The notes beneath the pieces were generated by a model. The model saw nothing but the letters and a program-made list of their open reading frames with translations. It ran no database searches and was not told the DNA's origin. The translations under genes and the position numbers were made by a program. 64,000 bases of DNA, taken from positions 36,814,184-36,878,183 of the forward strand of contig JARFYF010000022.1 in assembly GCA_030265395.1 (NCBI GenBank). The letters are read 5' to 3'. Source of the stretch: Rhina ancylostomus. Taxonomy: Eukaryota. Positions 3,521 to 61,719 of the stretch are shown piece after piece; position 1 is the stretch's first letter; every line of letters begins with the position of its first letter.

Positions 3521-3521
3521 A
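3501..3521 (-). promoter_or_regulatory. RE1/NRSE (REST-binding) element overlapping the upstream ATG
   Basis: Reverse complement reads TTCAGCACCGCGGACAGCGGC versus consensus TTCAGCACCnCGGACAGnGCC; both half-sites are exact with the canonical 2-bp spacer. Confidence 0.85.
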
Positions 3522-4174
3522 TGATCAGCTCAGTGCACGTCTCCACCTCCCGCGGCAGCACACCAGGGAAGCGACCTCCCTCCGCGACATGTCTGATCGA
3601 GGAGATGGGCAAGGGCGACGACAACGATCGCATCGTGATAAACGTGGGAGGGACTAGGCACGAAACGTACCGGAGCACCCTGAAGACCCTGCCCGGCACT
3701 CGGCTGGCATGGCTCACCGAGCCCGGCGCCTTCGCCAATTTCGACTACGATCCCAAGGCGGGCGAGTTCTTCTTCGACCGCCACCCGGGGGTCTTCGCTC
3801 ACATCCTCAACTACTACCGCACGGGCAAACTGCACTGCCCGGCCGACGTGTGCGGACCCCTGTACGAGGAGGAGATCGCCTTCTGGGGCATCGATGAGAC
3901 TGACGTGGAGCCTTGCTGCTGGATGACTTACCGGCAGCACCGAGACGCCGAGGAGGCTCTGGACAGCTTCGAGTCTCCCGATCTCAACAGCGGCGATGGT
4001 GACGGCGGCGGCGGAGGAGACGGGGTCGGGGACTCGGAGGACGAGCTGGACACCAAGCGCCTCGCCCTCGGAGACTGTTCCCCTGAAGCCGGAGCGAAAG
4101 CCGGCTGGTGGAGGAAATGGCAACGCCGCATCTGGGCTCTCTTTGAAGACCCCTATTCCTCTAAATATGCACGG
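3521..4174 (+). CDS. KCNC1: Kv3.1 coding exon 1: 28-aa N-terminal extension (ATG 3521), canonical start (ATG 3605), T1/BTB tetramerisation domain
   Basis: Translation [26 protein letters not shown]...[36 protein letters not shown]...[21 protein letters not shown]...[19 protein letters not shown] and PLYEEE are Kv3.1-type; T1 Zn ligands (H, C, CC) intact. Phase-0 donor CGG|GTAAGG at 4174/4175. 3605-4174 is 570 nt, matching the mammalian exon as I recall it. Confidence 0.97.
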
Positions 4175-6682
4175 GTAAGGGAAAAATACTCAACATGGCT
4201 CTGCAGCATTTACATCTGAACTACATCTCAAGAACCTGTTGGTCAAATGAATGGGGAGGGGGAGTTCAATATCTAGAAACACCTTAAATTAATGAATGTA
4301 AGGAACAAGTTTCCATTGAATTAATATCGTTAGCAGCAAGAAACAACAGAGATTTGGGGAGGCGCGGGTGGTGTGGTTAAACTGGGAGATATGTGTGGAA
4401 GGGAGAACCAACGGTGCAAACTACATGGAGTGCTTGGGAATGCAGAATCATTGTATGAGGATTCTAGGAGAACCAGACTGCGATCCTGTACCTCCCGCTT
4501 TGGTACAGCGAAATGAGAAGATTGCAGACTGCAGCAGGTTTATGAAACCAGGTCGTGGTTGTAGCAAAACTGCGTGGACTACTAATAAATGTAACCTCAC
4601 CCGGCACATACTGTGGGTCGAGGTGTCAGATATGTGGTTCAGATGAGCGCAAAAGTCAATTTTTCAGCACCTGGTGACCTTTGCCGAGGGACTGTCTTCC
4701 TGTGGGAATTTTAAAAAAAGATACAAATATCGCGAATTGTCATTTAAATTGGTATGTTTGTTGGACGGGTTTCAAGCATCTGGGTATACTGGAAAGGGGT
4801 TCGTTTTATTTCGGAGAACTAGTCCTTCTGATCCAAGCCACGGAGATTACGCACAGCAGGAGTGCGTTTCAATTTGGGGCTCATTGATATTCCATAGGCG
4901 CACACGGTGGGTGCAGACTGCAGAGGAATCCAAGAGTCGCCACTGTAAACTCATGTCCTGGTTTTAAATACATTTGAAAAAAAATTATGGATCTCACTGA
5001 AAGGAGACAATGAATCACGACACCGTGCTTCTGTTTTTTTAGAAAGAAAAAGAAACTCGGGCTAGAAATAGCAAGACTAACACCACAATGTTTGCTGCAA
5101 AGACCCAAGCACCATTACAGTAAAAACATCCACAAGTGCCAGTGTACATTTCAGCAGTTCTACAGTTTGAGAGATTTAACGTAAAATTGCTGGTATTTAT
5201 TTATCCAGTCTTAAAGCTCCTGAGAGCCACTGTGATGAGGCCCCGGCTTTAAAACCTTTTTTTTTGTTATTGTTGTACAAGATGTTGTGATACATTAATA
5301 TCGCTGACCTCAGAAAATGAAGGCTATCGATTTGCAGATTATTTGGAGACTGATGGCAGTGTGCATGTTCCGGACAAGCACTCAAACAACTGAAACACCT
5401 TAGCTCTCAAAGAATAAAACCACTTATTTCAGATTTGATCAGAATCAGATTTCTGCTAGGGTGATATATTCAGTGCAAAATTAGTAACGGGATTAACTAA
5501 CAATGCAACCGATATTGAAGTGCCGCATCTAATTCACGTTCTCCAGCTGATGTGCTAGCACACAGAATGTTTATTTCGCTGGTTTCTGAACGAATTTAGG
5601 TACGGTTACAGGGATATGGGAGAAGGCAGAAAAACATATAGTGAAACAGATAGCATGGAAACAAACATGTATGCATATATCCTATATATCTCTAGTTATT
5701 CGCAATATTTTTACATACTACTTGTTGGATTATGTACAGCCTAGTGTCATTCCTTCTCCTTCCCATGCATAAAGGTCCATCCCGAACAAAGCAGATCAAC
5801 CCTTGTATGTGTTTGTATGGAAGGTTCGTTCACCAGAGACACTGGGATGTTTTTTCCTAGATGTCTAATGTGATTCCTTCCGTTGTTATTTCAAGGTACA
5901 GTTCCTCTCATGCATCTACCTCTCACTGCACCAGAAACATGTTTCTGCGTGTTGTTTTACTGTACTGCCTCACAGAAATCTTGGAGAAAGGCACCAAGGG
6001 GCAAGGTCGAGGGTTTCAGGAAGCAGCGAGTGTTTCCTCGATGCTCCAGCAGGTGGTACCTGGTACCTGGCACTACGTCCGATTTTCCTGAAATCTCTGC
6101 AGTGGGAAAGGCGAATAGCTGATTAAACCAGCCGCAGAACAGACAACGTCGTCGCCCAGCAGCAATTCTTTGAAGCTTGGAAGTTAACCCTTTGGTTTGA
6201 TGCATTGCTCAGACAATGATGCCAGCATTTGACCTTGAATCTAAAATAATGCGCCTGCTTGAACATTGCATAGGCCAAGAACGAGACTTGCCCTATAGAT
6301 TGTCCACAAAATGTTGCTGGAACTAGTATGGATTCTTTATCCCAAGACATTAGGAACAAATGACCTTGATGGGCAGAATGCCCAACATCAACCAGAGAGG
6401 GTTCTTTTTAGTAGCAATGTAACAGTTACCTGGGGTTAGTTAACGCAATGTTGTAGATAGCATACAGGAGGGAATGTCCATTCAGTGCGAGGAACAAAAA
6501 TAAGGGAAGAGTTTGACGATGAAGGCATAAATGATAATATGGATGGACCTCTCCAGAATCAATGTTTATAATTAATTCCACATTTAGTGAGCGCCTAAGA
6601 GCGTTTACATTGAATTGTTTTGCTGTCTGTCGCATTTTCATGGTCTTCTTATTCTTGAATGAATTCAAAATTCACTGGGGAC

Positions 6683-45275: not shown

Positions 45276-47016
45276 GAAAAGTAAAGATGCCATCCATGGC
45301 ATGAGAGAAAGCATGGACCCTGGTAATTTTTAAACTGCTACATTATTTTAATGCATATTATTCTTTAATAACTGACTAGCAAATCCCACACCCCACTGTA
45401 AAATAAAATAGCTTATCACTCTGTGCCATGCCTCCTCTCACTGTATTTACTCTGTATCCTCCAAAGAAATTGAAGGATGCAACAGATACACATTCTACTG
45501 AATCATAATGTCCTCCTTCCATTTCAATATAGCTTTTAGGAATTTAAGAACCATGTAGAAATTGGGTATTTCTGTTGATGATTTATTAAAGGGAGGAGCT
45601 TCCCACACAGTATCTTGCTATTTGTAACTGTAACAGTTGCATTCCAATCAGGATTTATGAATTATCCACAAGCAAAATACTGCAGATGCTAAAATGCAGA
45701 CAATTCAGTGAGAGGCCTGTGGGCTGCCCTATGTGTCCAAGGTCTGGTCTACTCTCATGACTTCATAGACACAGTCATTTTGTCTGGAGTTCCAAGGTAG
45801 CATGTTTCTTCAGTGACATTATGTGTAAGGCCCCAGGTAAGTGGGAAAGGCCATCTTCAATGCTGCTCCAATGTTGATGGCCAACTTTGTGTATGGCTGC
45901 CTCAGGAAGTTTGTAAAGGCCCAAGATGCAAATAATGAGTTCGAGCTGTGAGAAGGCTGGGTCTGGCCACGTTGGCAAAGCAACCTCAGCATATTCTAGC
46001 AAGACGGAGTCTTTCTCTTCTGCTTTCTTAGGTGGAGAGATTTCTGAAGACAAATGCTCAACTACAAAACTATTGGACAATGGTCCGCTTAGAACATGTT
46101 TAATGTTCTAAGAGTATATGAGGGAGTGGACCCAATTGGATAATTCCCTGACGAAATCATTTCATCACCAGAACTTTCCAATAGGCTCCAGGTTGTACGG
46201 CGGATGATAGTGAATAACAGCTTTGGTATATCAAAACCAAATATTGCTTTGCTATGATAACATTTGGGCAAGATGTTTATGCTGTTGCTTTGGGATTACT
46301 TCTAACGTGCTCAGAACCTCAGATCTATTGCAAAATGTCCTCAAGGCTATGGTCGGGAAAATATAGAGATGCATTGGTACCAGTCCTAGCTCATCCCCAA
46401 TAGCTTGATTACACAGGCTTCTGTGCTCTACATGCTGTTCTCTGGTGTCAGTGGTGACATCAATTGTGCTAGAAGATCATCAATTTGGTGAAAGAGGCCC
46501 TGTGCTCTGCTTCAAAGCTGCTGCTCTTCCTACTGAAGAAATTATCATTGACTGAGTGTAAGGACTGAGTATCAGGATTGAGTAGTACCTAAGGACTACT
46601 TAAACAGGGTGCAGCCGATACAAAGGACCTACTGGCAAAGGCTGCACCCTCCAAACATCCCTTGCACACAATACACAAAATTTAGCCTATGTGGTGTTCA
46701 TTAAAAGCAAGATGTATATGAAATGGAATGATTGATTGTAAAGTCATGAAGTGTTACCTTTCTTTGCTCATGGAACATTTTCTGTACAACGTTCTATGAA
46801 GGAAAGAATTTAATTTTATGGTAAAATATCCATGGCAGGAGATTGCTAAATTTACTGGTGAGAAGATGAGTAAGTAGGTTTGAGAGCAATCAGGAAGGAA
46901 CAGGTTTTGTTGGGAATAATGAAACTTTTCTATGTAGCAAAATACTTTATGCCTCACTGTTTTGAACTGTTTTGATTCTTGCCACTAATATTTTTGTTTT
47001 CTGTTTTTCTTCACAG

Positions 47017-47970
<954 letters not shown>

Positions 47971-51645: not shown

Positions 51646-54112
51646 ATTTCTAAGAAAAATGCCTTGGCAGTGTAGGTACAGTTGCACTTAATTGAATGAA
51701 GCCAGAGTATGATGGATAATACACATTTTGCACTGATTCTAAAGTTAGCTGTCTCCGGCTGGCATTGTTCCCTTTCCCATGTGGTGTCCCCTTACACCTG
51801 CACAAGTGGACAATACGTACCGAAATATAAATGAAGGCTAACTGAGAGCAAGAGAGAAGGTGAGAAGAAGCACATTTTTGACATCTTGATCTATGGCAAC
51901 AAAGCTACTTGCTGTTAAATTATATAAAAGGAATTAAACCTCCTATGTTTAATTAATGAGTTGGTATTTAAACTGCCCAATTATGATGTAACCAAAAGCA
52001 TTTCAGTTACTGAAAACCATAGTATTTTAGTCTCCAATTCAGTGTGCTCTTCCAAGCATTCTGCAGCTTTCTTTTTATATTTTTCACACCTTTGTGTTCT
52101 GTTTCCCATCTTATATCATACTTACCAAAACTCAGCATTTCTTTCCCCATTCACAATAGCCTTTGCCTTCTGTACACATTTACACTATTCCACTCACCAT
52201 ATTTGACAGGTGTGAGAGGGAAGAGAGATCCTTTCTTTTCTTTGTAACAAATAAAAACATGAGGGGCTTAATATTGTATCCTATAGCACAGCATTTATGT
52301 GTACTACAAGGTACAATTTCATCAGAAAATTCTTCACAAAGGATGTTCCAGGTCTTTGCTGAGTATTCTGCCAATTCTGGGATATTCCTTCTGGGTGCTC
52401 TGTGCATCTAATATACTAAGACACAGAAGTGTTTTGTCTGCACGGCAGCATCCAAAGCAGCGAGCTGCAGATCTAGACACACTTGTTTGGTTTTCATGCA
52501 TATGTGCATGGCCTGTGACCTTGGCAGACTTGCGTCCTGCTTTGTTGAAGCTTAAAGGGAAAGAAACAGAGCAGGTTTCCTTTACTGTGGAGTATGGTGT
52601 TGAGAACTTACTTCAGGAGACCCACTAAATTAAAAAACTTGTCACTCACTGTGGTTCTCTCTATGCCCCCCCACCCCCAATTTCCCAAACTAATTGTAAG
52701 ACCAACTTTCCTCCTCAACTTGAATGTTCCCTTGACTAACCACACCCCCAACTCTCACAGTCACTGATTACCTACTCCCCTGACCCTGATTTTGACTGCC
52801 CAATCCTTGAGATCCAATCCTCTGAACTAATGTCCAAGTTCTGTGACCTCCCTGTTTGGGTTTTTCTCCCATATTCCCCCCCAACCCCCAAACAACCTGG
52901 GATCTATGAACCAGCCTCATGACCTGCCTGTTTCCCTCAGCAGTGGGCGACTTGTCAGAAAAATGGCCTTTGAGTACACTTATGGTGCAAGGCTCTTTCC
53001 AGGGTGCCTTGGACTTTGGAAATTTTGTAGCAGTGGGTCCTCAAGCAAAGCTTCTGTTGGCCTACTGTTCATGGCTTGTTTCACTTGTCTTTCTAGACAC
53101 AGCATTTCCTCAGCTGATATGCTTCAATGCATTTTCATGCATGGAGCTAAAAGATAGCTGCAAATGGGAATTTAAAAAGGAAAGGATAANNNNNNNNNNN
53201 NNNNNNNNNNNNNNNNNNNNNNNNNNNNNNNNNNNNNNNNNNNNNNNNNNNNNNNNNNNNNNNNNNNNNNNNNNNNNNNNNNNNNNNNNNNNNNNNNNNN
53301 NNNNNNNNNNNNNNNNNNNNNNNNNNNNNNNNNNNNNNNNNNNNNNNNNNNNNNNNNNNNNNNNNNNNNNNNNNNNNNNNNNNNNNNNNNNNNNNNNNNN
53401 NNNNNNNNNNNNNNNNNNNNNNNNNNNNNNNNNNNNNNNNNNNNNNNNNNNNNNNNNNNNNNNNNNNNNNNNNNNNNNNNNNNNNNNNNNNNNNNNNNNN
53501 NNNNNNNNNNNNNNNNNNNNNNNNNNNNNNNNNNNNNNNNNNNNNNNNNNNNNNNNNNNNNNNNNNNNNNNNNNNNNNNNNNNNNNNNNNNNNNNNNNNN
53601 NNNNNNNNNNNNNNNNNNNNNNNNNNNNNNNNNNNNNNNNNNNNNNNNNNNNNNNNNNNNNNNNNNNNNNNNNNNNNNNNNNNNNNNNNNNNNNNNNNNN
53701 NNNNNNAAACTTCCTGATGGTGGTCTCATACTACAGAGATGGCATTAAAGTATCCACTGTAGAAAACATGAATCACAACAGCAGATACCTATGTCTCTCC
53801 ATCAGCCTGTTGTTACAGAATGTTGTCTTTCTTTTACAAAGTCCTGCTCATTCTGCTCCATGCATACTGAGAGTAGTTACTTTTGCTTAGAATTGTTGAA
53901 ATCTATCTCTCACAACTTTGGTGCCGCTGCTTACTATATTTATGTGATATTATTTGCCAATGCAAAATATTTTATTGGCTGAATGTGCTGCCTCTGGAGT
54001 AACTTTAGTTGATTGCATAGAGCGTTACAAACCATAGATTCTGCTAACCTTTAGTAAGAAACACAAACATAGTACTTAGCATTTCATTCAGCTTTTGCTT
54101 GTATATTTGAAG

Positions 54113-54310
54113 ATTTTAAACAGAACGGTGATGCAGCAAATGCAGCATTGGCAAACGAAGATTGTCCTCATATTGACCAGGCACTGACGCCTGAAGATCA
54201 CCTCCCCTTCACTCGTTCTAACACCAGGGAGAGGAATGCCAGAGACGGGCCCTGCTTCCTCTTATCAACCGGGGAATTTGCATGTCCACCCGATGGAGGA
54301 ATAAGAAAGG
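54113..54310 (+). CDS. KCNC1: Kv3.1 coding exon 3 (Kv3.1b-type C-terminal exon)
   Basis: Not in the ORF track. tttgaag|AT acceptor, phase 1. Translates (D)[65 protein letters not shown], matching Kv3.1b [17 protein letters not shown]...[14 protein letters not shown]. Donor AAGG|GTACGT at 54310/54311. Confidence 0.95.
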
Positions 54311-56985
54311 GTACGTAACACACAGGCAAGATACGTAACCTTATAGGTATATATATCAATCTGTTAATCTAGTATTGCTAGGATATACAGCTGCATTGGG
54401 GAAGGTTTATCATGGATTAATAAGCAATGCTTAGCTGTGTAGAGTAATTGTCTATGAAATTCCATAGAGATTTTAGAAAGACGCTAAGCGCCATGAATTA
54501 AAGTGTAGAATTTCATTCAAGTCCTCTCACTGGTGTATTGTATATATATATATGTATATATATAGATCTATACATAGAGAGACAGTATTATCCAAACCAT
54601 ACCATTGGTGTGGTATATAGGAGCTTCATGTGCCATTTCTGATGGACAGTCTTCTATAGAGAACACTTAATTTGTAAATATAATTTATAAAGTAAATTAA
54701 AAGCCAGACTAAAAAAAAATTGATCACAACACTTTCATAAGAAAGTAGCTTGAAAACCTCAGCTAAAATTATCTTTGTAGCAAAGTGTTGAATTTGATTC
54801 CGTATTGGACAGATTGGCTAAAGAGTAATTCACTAGTGTGTTTCAATGTCAGCATATTGTTGGCCCGTGGAAGTGTGTTTCTACCAGCATGAACGATGGA
54901 AACCTTTCAGCTTAAATCCATCCTGTATGTGTTCTTGTAGATCTGTTCAATGTTAAGTTCTTGTGCATGTTTGAAATGGAATTGGTTGCATGTCTAGTCT
55001 TTAAATGCTTCAATGGACTTCAGAATAGTATCAAATTGGCATCAAAACGAGACCAATTCCAACTGAGATGAAAGACCAAAGAGTTCCCAGGTGTTCCTTC
55101 AAGCCCAATTCATACATTATATGGGGTGAGATATCAGATCAAACACACATCAATCAAGTTTCCACCATGGAAGTGACGGTAATATCCTTTAAAAGGGTTT
55201 TCATGAAATTATATTTGACAAAGTAAACTTATTAATAAAAGAAATAGACAAATGGAATGACTTTGGCATGGCTTATCTAACCAGAGCAAACTGAACATTG
55301 GATTTTCTGTTTGGCTGGTTTAATTAGACATCTTTTCAGTGTTTTCTACAGTTGGCTTTCATGTCTGGGTCTTAGAGAGCTGAATAACTAGATGGAATAA
55401 ACTACTCAATATCTTGCTAATCAGTTTACTATATTAATGAAAGACTAACATATTAGCCTCATATTTCTGATGTATTTATTATCTAGCAAAAGCAGTGATT
55501 TCTTCCACACTCTGAACATGTGTGAAGCTGAGGCACTTCCTAATTTGAAAACAGAGAATTGTCACTTGGAGTGGGGAGTTCCAGTGGGGAAAGGAGATGG
55601 GAGGGGGACATTTGGTGAATTATGTGCTGGCCTTTCACCTCTAGCACCTGGATTCAATCCAAAATTCTATCTATGGGATTAAATTCTCCTTTAGTTGGCT
55701 GATACTCTGACTGGCCGAAAGTACTTCTGCATAGGAATGGGTATTGTGCTCCCAAGTCCATCTCTGATTTGGCAGTCTCACATTCTGAGGTGTATGGGAA
55801 ATGGAAAGGTTGCTGCTCTATGGGTAGTGTTCAGTAGAGACTATGAGTTACCATACTATCTGAATTGGTGATGTAAATGCAGGTAATACTGATTGGAAAT
55901 TACTGTTTTTTCAACACTGCCATTCCCTTCCCCCACTCTTCAAAATTCACATAACAAGTTTGATTTGAAAGCAATGCATAAGAACCTCTGGAAAGAATTT
56001 TCCACCAATATCCCTACTGAGCCAGAGTGGTTGCTGTGTTAATTGTCTGGATTAATATCAATTTCCCCTGGCTCCAAACATATAGACTCTTAAAAAAGTG
56101 CTCTTTCTCATTTTATACAATGAATCTCCAACCTTAGAAAAATTCCACGATGCAGACCAAGTGGGCTCCTATGCTGAACAACTCCATGATTCTGTACAAT
56201 GTGGCATCTGCTCAATTGACTTCTGTATTCTTATTTTCTAATCAAAACTTAGTGTCAAAACAGTATTGCCCTGTTTGCTCTCCCTCAGAGTATTTGCACA
56301 TATCAGTTTAAATCTCAAAAGATTGTGTTTTCCATCTTGACCTGGCACACAGCTTCTGTTTAAGAGTCAGGATTGTCAGCTTGTAACCCCATCACTAGCC
56401 ACAAAGTAATTTTCATTTGGGCAAATATTCCCCCACCTCATGCGATAAAAGCCCAATTGCTTCACACAATCAGCCTATGGTAAATATTCAATAAGGCAAA
56501 CAAATGCAGGTGCATAAGAAGTTGATGCACAGCTTTAGACAGCAGAAGCCGAGTGGAATTGGACTTGGCAATTGATTACAGAATGGTTAGATTTAGGTTC
56601 CTTGTTTGCTGTACTTTGGTTTGGTGTATTTGACTGAAATATTGTCACCTCAGGGATGACATGAGAACATGATAGTGTTAACAATTTTTTAACTTATTAG
56701 TTGTGCTGAAGAAGTAATTTGCCCTAAAACTGACAGTGCAGAACTCTGGAAATGGTAAATTAAAATACAAAAAAACCCAAAAATTAATAGCTCAGAGTAA
56801 CAACACTATAGAGTGTTTAGCAAAGTAACACCACATCCAACGTAGTCTATTACATCACCTGAGTTCTTTCTTAGAAATCAATGCCTGGTGAAATAAGGGT
56901 CGTTAACTTAGGGATGTAGAAGCGATCCCTAGTAACCACTTCTCTTTGTCTTTCATTAACAGTGATACTACTCTGAGCATGCAAG

Positions 56986-57866
56986 TGCATGGAGATGCTT
57001 TATCAGACTGGCAATGATGTAGACTCATCATTATCCATTCTATTGTTGATCCAATGCTGTACTTTGCATTTTTCCTACATAAAGGTTTTGAAAACTCAAG
57101 GAGCCTAAGCAACAGAGCTGGCATGAGCAGAAATATACTAAAATTGCCTTCAGTGTCTTCTTCGCTCTACAGCTCTCCTTGTCCATTGAGGCTTTCTCCG
57201 TCTCCCATACCATCCATTTTATAGCATGGATTAGTAGCTGAGAATGGTCCAAAGCTTTAGTCCTACAGCCTATACTGTCTTGCATAAAACCAGGTAATAA
57301 GTCTGAAGATTGCATGTCTCTAGGTAGCACCTTGCTGCTGGTGATTCTACTGTTGACATTAGGTGGGACAATCCTTGTTGATTTCTAAATGGGATCGCAC
57401 AGGCACATGATGGCACCAGTGGTCTGTATGCTACATGTGTTTGGTGCATAGGTGGAAATAATGCAGCTACATGCAGTTCCCAATATTTGATGATCTCGCC
57501 CACTGCTTTGGGTGTGCATTTGTCCATTTGTGAAAGCACTGGCTCTTTGGAAATGGGTAACACTTATGTTTATTGGTGCACTTGGTCAACGTTTGAAGAT
57601 TTCTTTCTCAGGATCTTTTGAGCCATATGACCCTGAGGGAGTTCACACAAACATGCAGTTTGAGGTGCCATTGCATGGAAGCCAAACTGATTGCGAGCAA
57701 TACTCTTTAGAGGTCCCAGTTAATCTGGGTGCATGTGAAGGTCTTTAGAAGAAGGATACTGCCCCCTCTGCATGTAGCTATATTTTTTTTAAGCAGAAAC
57801 AAAATGCCACATTTATATTGAAGGGCAGGGGAAAGAAGGTCAAGTATTCACTGTATTCTTTGCATG
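56986..57866 (+). promoter_or_regulatory. Cluster of RBFOX-type TGCATG motifs around the alternative terminal exons
   Basis: TGCATG at 56986, 57311, 57672, 57730, 57769 and 57861. Confidence 0.55.
57085..57224 (+). CDS. KCNC1: Alternative terminal exon encoding a Kv3.2/Kv3.3-type ...SPIPSIL C-terminus
   Basis: ctttgcatttttcctacataaag|GT phase-1 acceptor compatible with exon 3. Open 46-codon frame (G)[45 protein letters not shown] aligns to the recalled Kv3.2 tail GYEKSRSLNNIAG...YNSPCPLRRSRSPIPSIL. Confidence 0.8.
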
Positions 57867-57869
57867 CAG

Positions 57870-57934
57870 ATTTCTGCAAAGGCAGCCCTGTCATTGCTAA
57901 ATATATGCAAGCAGGGGCAGTCAGAGTAACTTAA
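57870..57934 (+). CDS. KCNC1: Kv3.1b terminal coding exon
   Basis: tattctttgcatgcag|AT phase-1 acceptor. (D)[20 protein letters not shown] versus Kv3.1b [21 protein letters not shown]. TAA at 57932-57934. Confidence 0.93.
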
Positions 57935-58772
57935 TGAGCTGGGACAGAATTGGACGCTTTGTGGGCAATTATCTGCCCACTGGGAACATTTCAAGAAAAG
58001 AAGACCCACCTCTTTAGGACAAGCAAAGCTACTTCAAGCCAAACAGGCTTCTAAGGACCATGTGTGTAACAGATTTGACCCAGAAATGCAGGCTTTCTAA
58101 AGCCCAATGTTTCCAAAAAAAGGTAGAAGATTTGTATTTGTTTGCTAGCATGAACTGCATGTTATAGAAACTGTAATTCTATGATTAACCTTTAAATCAG
58201 AAGTTCTATTTCCTTCCAAGATACTTTACTTTTACAAAACTTTGATGTGATCATAATGTAAGAATTAACTATATTTATTTGCAATGGATAGTTTTTTTTG
58301 TATTATTCATGAAACAGTGCAAGATTAGAGAAAACTGTATGTAGATGGCGATTGGTCATATTGACCACTCATCCATGCTTCAGATCTCCATCTGAAACAA
58401 GCCATTAAAACTATGTATTCAGAAAGCACTTCTGCCCCTGTATCTGATTAGGTCAGCATGCTAGTAATCTTGTATTTTCTGGACATCATGTGTATCTATA
58501 AATATTAACTCTTCATCCGGATGGTCTTAGCCTCTTTGCATTTACAAGTGTATATTTCAGACTTGCAGACTCTAAATTAGGAAGCGTGCATTTCATTGAA
58601 CAGTACCAATTTATCTACGCCATTTTCCATGGCAGGACTACTGGTCCAAGTCAGCGAATGACTTCACTCCAATTTGGTCTTCTAAAGTTGGAATCAATAC
58701 TTCAGCACTGTATGCAATTTAGTTCTAAATACGTGCATGCACAATATAATATGCAAAAAAGTTCTAGCATGA

Positions 58773-58778
58773 AATAAA
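58773..58778 (+). terminator. Candidate polyadenylation signal for the 3' isoforms
   Basis: AATAAA ~840 nt after the Kv3.1b stop, followed by ATTAAA and T-rich sequence; no transcript support. Confidence 0.3.
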
Positions 58779-61719
58779 TTTTGTATTAAATCGGTCACTG
58801 CCTGCATGGTTTGATTTATTTTTGTTTTCAATAACGTGAGTCTTGCATTGATGAATTCCCTGTGGTCTCCAAGGACAAATCAGGAGAGTCAGAATGGAAA
58901 CATCAGGTGCTTGGCTCATTTTCAAACAATCAATGAGTGAGTATGGAGTGGTAGTGCTCTACGACAGGCTGGGAAAGCTGTTACTTATCATCAAGAGGTT
59001 CATATGCATTCTTAACATCTATCTATAATTTAAAAATGTGTTTAATTATAAATGTTATTATTCAAAAGGTAATGTAGCTGTCACAAAGTGCAGAATCCTT
59101 TTTGGAGGAATGATTGCTGCCACACATTCCCTGCTAATGATACCCAAGCTCACTTCACGCCTGATGAGATTGGATGGTGAATTTTACCTCTTGATAAAAC
59201 TGCCTGGATTCAGATCCATCCTTGAAAGAGGAGAGGTGGTATCCAGTACTTAATGGGAGACTGGATGAAGAATTCTCTTTTTGTTCTTTAAAACAACCTG
59301 GAGACAAACCAAACATATGAAGGGTCACTTTAACATAACTTACCCTGTGGGAAAAGGTAGATTGGGTTAGAGGTTTTATAGTTCACCCCTGTTTTAAACA
59401 TCCATCTACAGATACACCAGGGAGGACCAACTTCGGAGAATCAGAAAAAATTAACAGTAGGACTAACACTCAGCTCCCTCTTAGATCAAAGGCTCAGCAA
59501 AGCCAATTTGTCCTAAGGAGGTGATTGTTTATTTCCTCCAAATGCTGTAGTGAATTCGCAGGAATGGTACCTTCTTGCTATTGTGGTTGGGCAGTAGCAA
59601 AAGGCTGGCAGCCATTCTCCTGTTTTAGGCTTCCCAGGAGCGATAGTTGGGTGTGTTTATCCTTTAAGTTGGGTAGTGTAGACATATGCTATGGGGTGGG
59701 TCTATCCCTCATTAATGTCAAGATGCTGCAAGTAAAATTGGTGGGGGGAAGGAGAACAAAAATTAGCAATATATTACTTAACCATAATATTGCAAGAGTA
59801 ATGAGGGATAGTACAATCAGGAGATTTGCATGCATGCTTTCCCTACTGGGGCATTTTCACATTTAAATAAGAGGCAGGGAATAAGGAACTTCCTCTCTCT
59901 GATGAATTAGCTTTTGTACTTATAGCTCTGGGATGATATGTTCAATAGAGGAGATGGCAGACTATGTATTTAATAGGCCAGTTGCCTACTTGAAACAAGT
60001 GTCTGGAGGGAATCGGTTTGCTTGCTTTAGGCTGAAGAAGATCACGCAGACTGGAGACCGACAGTTCAGTAGTCAGGTAAGTCATTGGAGCAGGCAATTG
60101 GTTTGTGCTGGTCAGAGGAAATTGAAGTGACTTCTTGTCTCTCATATGTAGGGCATAGACTGAAATATACACTCAGGTTATTCAAGAAACTGCCTGTAAA
60201 AATTTCTGCGTCCTATAAGTAGGTATTTTGTTTCAGACCATTTTATGCACCTGCATATTTAACATTTTGCAAACTTCCACAATGCCAGATGTCATGCAAT
60301 ATGAAGAGTGTCTGGCACCAGTTATTTACTTACTTTAGGTATTGTCTTTAACAGCTCACCCAGGGACACATTCCTCCTGTCCTTTCCTGAACATGCGTCT
60401 CTTGTTGGGGAACAGATCTGTGTATATAAAGAACAGTTTTGAATATTATGCTAGTGGTCCTTCATCACATGTAAGCATATGCATGTAAAGCCAGGAGTTA
60501 ACTACTATCCATTCTCATCCTCAGCCAATACCACACACACTTTCCATAAGAAGTCACTTAATCCTGGTTGATTTTTTTCCTTCCCTGATGCAGGGACATG
60601 AAAATCAACTTCACTCTGCAAATATGGTCACCACTGAACCCAGCTAACTGAACATAGAATGTTGAATCTGGGGCAAACTTCGCTGTCGAAAGAGAAACAG
60701 AGTTAATGTTCCAGATCAAAGACCTGTCGTCAGAACTGTTTCACTCTCCACAGATGCTGCCTGACCTGTTGGATGTTTCTAACGTTTTCTGTTTTTATTT
60801 CTGATTGGCAGGAGCTGTATTTTTTTTGCTTTCCCATGGAATCTAGGACAGTTGTTGTTTATCCTGGAATAATAAGGCTCTGGNNNNNNNNNNNNNNNNN
60901 NNNNACACATCACAGCAGTTAACATGTACAATATCATGCTCATTTTGCTAATGCCAATTAGCAAAAGAGTCCTCCAAATTTAATGAGAATGGGTATAAAC
61001 AAATTGGGCCTAAATCCTATTTTTTTTCCAATGTCATGCAATTAAAAATTGATTTTTCCATGAGTGAAAGATGATAATGACCATTCCTGGGTCATTGTTC
61101 AGAAAATTCAACTGGGCGCATCTTGCTGTGAATCACTCGTGACCTTGATGTGATTTCCATGTCAGAGCCACATGGGATGGCACACTTTCCTTCTAGCCTT
61201 CAAACTACAGGGGAAGCTGGACCAGATTGTCACAGGAATGCCTATCGTTAGGTACTTCTGGATTAATGTGGCCCCTGCTCAATGTTGATCTGGGAGATAA
61301 GTAAAATAGTTGGTTGCAGCACCTCCAGAACACCCCAATTTCCAGTTAACCCCAGTTGTTATTTATTTATTTATTCTTTAAATATGAACCTTGAATTCTT
61401 TTAATTACCATTCATCCACATCAGGCACACAATTTCAATAATCTGTTAGAAAAACGATTATGATTTTATTGATATATGCAGGTTTCAATGAGATGAGTTA
61501 AAAGCAAATTGAAATTGTCCTACAACAGCAGGAAAATGACTTTCATTCCTGTTTCATCTGAGCATCTACTCTCGAACTGAACAGTCCTTTGAATAAGTGC
61601 AGTTAGTAGTTACTTGTGTTTGAGAATTGAAGGATGACTGGAGATTTGTCCAGGTGGAAACTGCAAAAGATTATTGAAACCCAATTGCATGCAGTTGACA
61701 GCAGTTGCATCTGAGATTG

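Follow-up and report, generated by a model that had tools for sequence, protein, structure and literature searches.

The locus analyzed here raises the question of whether Kv3.1 has a third C-terminal form in vertebrates other than mammals. Two isoforms are stated for mammalian Kv3.1 in passages of PMC11473391 and PMC12994180, and the ends of both, Kv3.1a and Kv3.1b, are present at their expected places in the window, a stretch of 64,000 nt from Rhina ancylostomus that was analyzed as a whole; a third, PSIL-ended frame lies between exon 3 and the Kv3.1b tail of the same gene (Table 1).

Table 1. Features of the window gene, with positions counted from the first base of the window
Feature	Position	Strand	Remarks
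KCNC1 coding exon 1 (T1 domain)	3521..4174	+	28-residue Kv3.4-like extension before the tetrapod-type ATG 3605
Coding exon 2 (S1–S6)	47017..47970	+	Donor after 47938; reading on past it to the stop gives the Kv3.1a end
Coding exon 3 (proximal C-terminus, 198 nt)	54113..54310	+	Contigs spanning 54111–54310 in 4/4 runs
Proximal (PSIL) acceptor: pyrimidine tract and AG	57060..57084	+	14/18 pyrimidines; junction in contigs
Coding part of the PSIL-type tail	57085..57224	+	46 residues with split Gly, then TAG
Segment of 645 nt: 3′ UTR (PSIL form) or intron (b form)	57225..57869	+	Contigs; UTR reading putative
Distal acceptor and Kv3.1b coding tail (non-coding in the PSIL form)	57870..57934	+	Junction 54310/57870 in 2/4 runs
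AATAAA and poly(A) addition site, likely common to both forms	58773..58794	+	26-A loose end, X1

The PSIL acceptor reads ...tttgcatttttcctacataaag|G, with the boundary at 57084/57085. When the exon-3 donor (AAGG|gtacgt) is joined to it, G54310 and the acceptor at 57085 form a glycine codon, which is followed by 45 open codons and a TAG at 57222–57224. A sequence-only reading of the stretch had described this phase-1 acceptor with an uninterrupted 46-residue frame; its coordinates and stop were reproduced, and the spacing from the stop to the Kv3.1b acceptor (57870) was recomputed to be exactly 645 nt, as it had claimed. Like other Kv3 PSIL exons, the frame has a phase-1 acceptor, a G-aromatic-E-x-S-R-S-L start, and a PSIL-stop end, and the encoded tail is rich in Ser, contains three Ser-Pro pairs, and ends in S-I-L. 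Frame length was rejected as evidence for an exon, because phase-1 frames of more than 45 codons also follow eight other AGs in this intron. A six-frame search of the 2.2-Gb genome with the PSIL peptide returned five matches, of which two were good (E values of 9.6e-8 and 1.7e-6) and the next two had E values above 1 and internal stops. Both good matches were the 3′ ends of other Kv3 genes, and as good matches were found nowhere else, the homology of the tail goes beyond chance. No NCBIfam family matched the tail.

If the gene were a KCNC3- or KCNC4-like paralogue, a PSIL tail would merely be expected. This reading draws on the match of the N-terminal residues to a Kv3.4 peptide (E value of 2.6e-6), on the many RefSeq names that read 'KCNC1-like', and on an exon-1 tree of 24 rows, in which the node joining the group of the window gene to KCNC1 was left open. 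A 20-row tree, with shark and ray records as proxies, grouped them with tetrapod KCNC1 at 88/90 at a node that was not starred, and both trees were built without tetrapod KCNC3 or KCNC4 rows. The T1 domain, six-helix core, and Kv pore are present in the open reading frames at 3521–4219 and 46966–47970; Pfam PF02214 and PF00520 were found on near-identical database records, and the gene itself is near-identical to records from Mobula, Hypanus, and Narcine. The Kv3.1a read-through end equals the a-type ending of a bird record (P0155), and the Kv3.1b end is identical to that of cat KCNC1 at 16 of 21 residues. By eye, the exon-3 signature is that of Kv3.1 and not of Kv3.2, Kv3.3, or Kv3.4, as compared with tetrapod KCNC1 and a portion of the supplement 1 alignment of PMC2933717. 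Four Kv3 first exons were found in the genome, in the window (contig C22) and on C29, C67, and C53, and the three other loci already carry KCNC2, KCNC3, and KCNC4 signatures, which argues against a paralogue in the window.

The surroundings of the gene point the same way. About 54 kb upstream of it is a gene for tryptophan hydroxylase, and the same contig holds genes for tyrosine hydroxylase and a MyoD-like protein at distances of 2.3 and 4.4 Mb, respectively. The C29 gene is near a pair of Myf5-like genes and a further hydroxylase gene. Human KCNC1 is linked to TPH1, MYOD1, and TH, and the C22 and C29 surroundings presumably correspond to the human KCNC1 and KCNC2 neighborhoods, respectively. 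No RCC1-repeat (SERGEF-like) match was found beside the window gene among the 150 of 177 candidates scored. Taking the exon-3 signature, the a and b ends, synteny, and, more tentatively, the 20-row tree together, the window gene is KCNC1. The Kv3.1 identity assigned from the sequence was thus upheld by its a and b ends, its exon-3 signature, and its TPH/TH/MyoD neighbors, and these same features make the paralogue a very improbable reading.

Several minor observations were made on the gene and its relatives. Database names look swapped among P0029, P0043, P0103, P0116, and P0130, where shark and ray proteins labeled 'KCNC1-like' have KCNC3-type sequences, and a tarsier protein labeled KCNC3 has a KCNC1-type sequence. 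A 10-N gap in exon 2 (47351–47360) falls in the S3–S4 region, where relatives have about nine more codons; it is an assembly or masking gap rather than a demonstrated deletion. The residue matching Ser503 of mammalian Kv3.1b (window 54112–54117, + strand), a PKC site, is Phe here and in three of three shark and ray records checked; cat and plover have Ser. At G000:C29:45907294-45969019, two genes for aromatic amino acid hydroxylases stand in tandem, likely PAH and a second tyrosine hydroxylase.

The exon-3 phase-1 donor (gt at 54311) is common to two last-exon acceptors, 57085 and 57870, which lie 785 nt apart. Their use was checked in Logan contigs of four runs (X1–X4) from four studies on four related organisms; of the 23 listed public runs, 22 contained part of the stretch and none was on record as RNA, a blank record being no evidence. 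The junction 54310/57085 (GT..AG), to which the sequence-only reading had pointed, was found in X1, X3, and X4 (contig depths of 32.1, 57.2, and 32.2), and the Kv3.1b junction 54310/57870 was found in X1 and X3 (29.5 and 145.2), depth being a poor measure by which the isoforms cannot be ranked. These junction contigs come from relatives and from unspecified tissue, without a DNA control run, and intron-spanning contigs occurred in all four runs. Run X2 had neither junction among the matches listed (15 of 17 joints), and in X4, 54310/57085 was the sole splice junction among those listed. Run X1 was labeled 'probably DNA' by the tool, yet it contained two GT-AG junctions and a poly(A) end.

Contigs starting at 57084 continue through the b exon to 57898 (X1 and X3) or 58922 (X4). 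No AATAAA or ATTAAA occurs from 57224 to 58404, and the 26-A loose end of X1 lies at 58794, 16 nt past the AATAAA at 58773, in a part of the genome that is not rich in A. The continuing contigs and the absence of both signals from that interval argue for one shared last exon with two acceptors, and the PSIL form is best read as the product of its proximal alternative 3′ splice site and not as a separate cassette. The spliced third C-terminus proposed from the sequence was therefore borne out by the junction in the contigs, while the separate terminal exon gave way to a proximal 3′ splice site. We conclude that the PSIL isoform is almost certainly real and used.

The tail was then followed into other vertebrates. 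Used alone as a query, it retrieved four RefSeq proteins named KCNC1-like or kcnc1a among 61 candidates (Hypanus, Carcharodon, Scyliorhinus, and Rhincodon), the clusters of which add Chiloscyllium, Narcine, Stegostoma, and Mustelus. The shark and ray KCNC1 tails were identical to the window tail at 43–46 of 46 residues in all nine records compared. The RefSeq isoforms XP_038663493.1 (Scyliorhinus canicula X1), XP_069770179.1 (Narcine bancroftii X3), and XP_059829920.1 (Hypanus sabinus X8) are of the same gene with the same tail, at 46/46 identity in Narcine and Hypanus. Such isoforms are automatic predictions, some of which join the tail directly to exon 2, and no functional study was found for the shark and ray PSIL isoforms of KCNC1.

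A query combining exon 3 and the tail returned 153 proteins of 214 candidates, with turtle and bird KCNC1 PSIL isoforms leading the 120 listed, and the cluster listings add lizards and a caecilian with PSIL-ended KCNC1. In the 609-aa KCNC1 of birds, turtles, and lizards and the 596-aa KCNC1 of the caecilian (for example XP_009890317.1, XP_034626096.1, XP_028588589.1, and XP_030056944.1), the PSIL tail is joined to exon 3 at the same point, but these tetrapod tails are only 24–27/46 identical to the window tail and belong to proteins without the N-terminal extension described below; those of birds, turtles, and lizards are also shorter by one residue. KCNC2 tails match the window tail at 29–30/46. 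As the window tail is no closer to tetrapod KCNC1 than to KCNC2 tails, its orthology rests on position, and the KCNC1 tails appear to have drifted in each lineage, more so than the KCNC2 copies. Two earlier suppositions could not be kept: the exon is not 'hidden', since RefSeq routinely annotates the tail in non-mammalian KCNC1, which reduces its novelty, and it is not peculiar to the lineage of the window gene, since birds, lizards, turtles, and a caecilian carry it on KCNC1.

The C-termini of 70 KCNC1-filtered proteins (of 176 gathered) comprised 33 PSIL, 16 b, one a, and 20 other ends in a set biased by the query. The ten mammalian KCNC1 protein records among them had six b-tail ends, four ab initio read-throughs, and no PSIL end, in a small sample in which two large clusters, of 662 and 75 members, were each known from 15 members. 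When the bird tail served as the query, seven proteins of 24 candidates were obtained, none of them a mammalian or teleost KCNC1, a weak result in that clusters hide members; nor was there a teleost KCNC1 with a PSIL tail among the records retrieved. Judging from these protein sequences, mammalian KCNC1 likely lost or stopped using the PSIL tail. The earlier statement that mammalian Kv3.1 is described with a and b forms only agrees with these records and with the two isoforms given in the passages of PMC11473391 and PMC12994180. For zebrafish kcnc1a, Table 1 of PMC2933717, in the portion available, gives two distal exons about 1 kb apart, with no sequence alongside. No description of a PSIL form of Kv3.1 was found in the open literature, subscription journals being mostly outside the search. 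The PSIL tail of KCNC1 is thus a known exon type, present in automatic annotation for many non-mammals and apparently unstudied.

A decaying fossil exon, amounting to mere splicing noise in KCNC1, would be in keeping with between-lineage tail differences that are larger in KCNC1 than in KCNC2 and with the presence of the tail in 0/10 mammalian records. Decay is contradicted by an intact frame at 43–46/46 identity across rays and sharks, by depths of the same order for the PSIL and b junctions in X1 (32.1 and 29.5) and X3 (57.2 and 145.2), poor as that measure is, and by the PSIL joint being the only splice junction among those listed in X4. This explanation is already largely refuted, and we give it hardly any credence.

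The layout of the last exon recurs in two other Kv3 genes of this genome. The C29 gene (KCNC2) has a PSIL acceptor 751 nt before a short D-starting exon, and the C67 gene (KCNC3-type) has one 1434 nt before a short D-starting exon resembling the Kv3.1b tail. As KCNC2 and KCNC3 share it, the two-acceptor layout is likely older than the Kv3 paralogue duplications, and the PSIL/short-tail arrangement was likely inherited from the Kv3 ancestor, in agreement with the ancestral isoform suggested earlier. The kinship to the Kv3.2 and Kv3.3 PSIL tails, also suggested then, is corroborated by the two good genome matches and by the common layout. The PSIL forms of Kv3.2 (KCNC2) and Kv3.3 (KCNC3; zebrafish kcnc3a 'PSIL' in a portion of PMC2933717) have the same phase, class of start motif, and end as that of Kv3.1, and their exons are likewise sited upstream of a short D-starting alternative exon. 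However, they belong to paralogous genes and are 28–30/46 identical to the window tail, which has Phe-Glu-Asn for Tyr-Glu-Lys, one inserted residue, and a loss of basic residues near the end. Between the window tail and the KCNC2 and KCNC3 tails of this genome, 29 and 27 residues are identical, 14 and 13 of them with a different codon, and the DNA likeness falls past the stop, from local scores of 87 and 67 to 18 and 13. The differing codons at identical residues and this fall show that constraint acts on the protein.

At the KCNC4-like locus (C53), no PSIL-type exon was found in the 20 kb from exon 3 (tblastn, best E value of 0.19; 1173 bases N), and a chance PSIL string there was dismissed, its frame being unrelated. 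The KCNC3-type exon 3 (L020, G000:C52:119816893-119817075) lies apart from exon 1 and the distal exons (L003/L008, G000:C67); the splitting of this gene over C52 and C67 likely reflects a mis-scaffolded piece.

We propose, with good confidence, that a conserved alternative 3′ splice site swaps the Kv3.1b tail for the PSIL tail, likely for PDZ binding, and that it likely bears on channel placement and not on gating. In the contigs, the exon-3 donor is joined to either 57085 or 57870, and the splice choice swaps only the distal tail, the use of 57085 replacing the 21-residue Kv3.1b tail with the 46-residue Ser/Pro-rich PSIL tail. Use of the proximal acceptor would turn the b exon into 3′ UTR, and both forms would share the poly(A) site near 58794 as their end; because the PSIL stop lies within the last exon, the mRNA should escape nonsense-mediated decay. 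The PSIL end would likely bind class I PDZ scaffolds, altering channel placement in nerve cells with gating unchanged.

Class I PDZ ligands have Ser or Thr at position -2 and a hydrophobic residue at position 0. The S-I-L end of the tail, which had been noted as class I PDZ-like, fits this consensus as a sequence match, and PSIL was invariant in 21/21 KCNC1, KCNC2, and KCNC3-type tails compared, their middle being variable and the tails having been partly chosen by similarity. Tails of related channels provide precedents: zebrafish Kv3.3 has PSIL and WIKP tails with gating alike (in the part of PMC2933717 available), Apteronotus Kv3.3 is directed to dendrites by a PDZ-binding motif at its C-terminus (Deng 2005, as cited in a passage of PMC13282929), and the a and b tails of mammalian Kv3.1 set soma-dendrite versus axon placement via masking of an ankyrin-G motif (excerpt of PMC9287412). 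From the consensus fit, the PSIL invariance, and these Kv3.3 and Kv3.1 precedents, we infer a PDZ-anchored role in localization, although the PDZ step alone has only slightly better than an even chance.

The PSIL form could also be translated with its PDZ-like end incidental, the tail serving as a phosphorylation or length-dependent unmasking module or the splice choice acting at the mRNA level through a 645-nt longer 3′ UTR. Its Ser-rich composition with three Ser-Pro pairs would suit phosphorylation, and use of the proximal acceptor does lengthen the UTR. Long versus short tails control the masking of the axonal motif in mammalian Kv3.1 (excerpt of PMC9287412), and in one variant, the PSIL tail, like that of Kv3.1b, would free the ankyrin-G motif from T1. 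On the other side, an invariant PSIL after a variable middle, in 21/21 partly similarity-selected tails, is the pattern of a terminal ligand, and we consider these alternatives, the variant included, jointly unlikely.

With the alternative 3′ splice site as the preferred reading, the two-acceptor last exon is an old design common to Kv3 genes, and the account of Kv3.1 with two isoforms is likely a simplification drawn from mammals. As a system it is nothing new in kind: exons of this type are known in Kv3.2 and Kv3.3, and automatic annotation already includes the one in KCNC1. It is of comparative use for work on fast-spiking neurons in birds, reptiles, and fishes, and the PSIL and b tails offer a natural tail swap for studying Kv3 targeting.

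The other end of the protein also departs from the tetrapod form. An in-frame ATG right after a stop (window 3521–3604, + strand) adds 28 residues, and the first 28–29 residues of the protein align with the N-type inactivation peptide of Kv3.4 (PDB 1b4g, E value of 2.6e-6), with His replacing Cys6 and fewer basic residues; the start context is weaker at ATG 3521 than at ATG 3605. This extension was kept in 8/8 shark and ray KCNC1 among the records listed and was absent from the tetrapod KCNC1 records compared; zebrafish kcnc1a is without it in the alignment portion of PMC2933717. The non-inactivating Kv3.1 of the tetrapod and zebrafish type has no N-terminal inactivation extension, whereas the window gene would have one if translation began at ATG 3521. 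As far as the peptide match indicates, Kv3.1 of cartilaginous fishes may be an inactivating channel, and the extension may be worth more attention than the PSIL tail.

A broader conjecture, which we rate below an even chance, is that jawed vertebrates outside the mammals produce a third, undescribed isoform of Kv3.1, which its PDZ-ended tail would take to dendrites like Kv3.3 and which mammals would have lost; Kv3.1 of cartilaginous fishes, having both the tail and an N-type inactivation peptide, would then be the most ancestral. If such a dendritic isoform exists, work on bird and fish Kv3.1 with antibodies against the Kv3.1b tail would have missed the PSIL form.

Further variation was observed around the exon-3 donor. 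Read-through of this donor (window 54311–54318, + strand) gives Gly-Thr-stop, and unspliced contigs cross it in X1 and X3. Some RefSeq models (P0001, P0002, P0004, P0009, P0012, and P0018) use other donors or join exon 2 to the PSIL acceptor without exon 3. Bird KCNC1 records (P0135, P0139, P0141, P0144, and P0147) carry a further conserved tail of 60 residues, which begins as a read-through of the exon-3 donor.
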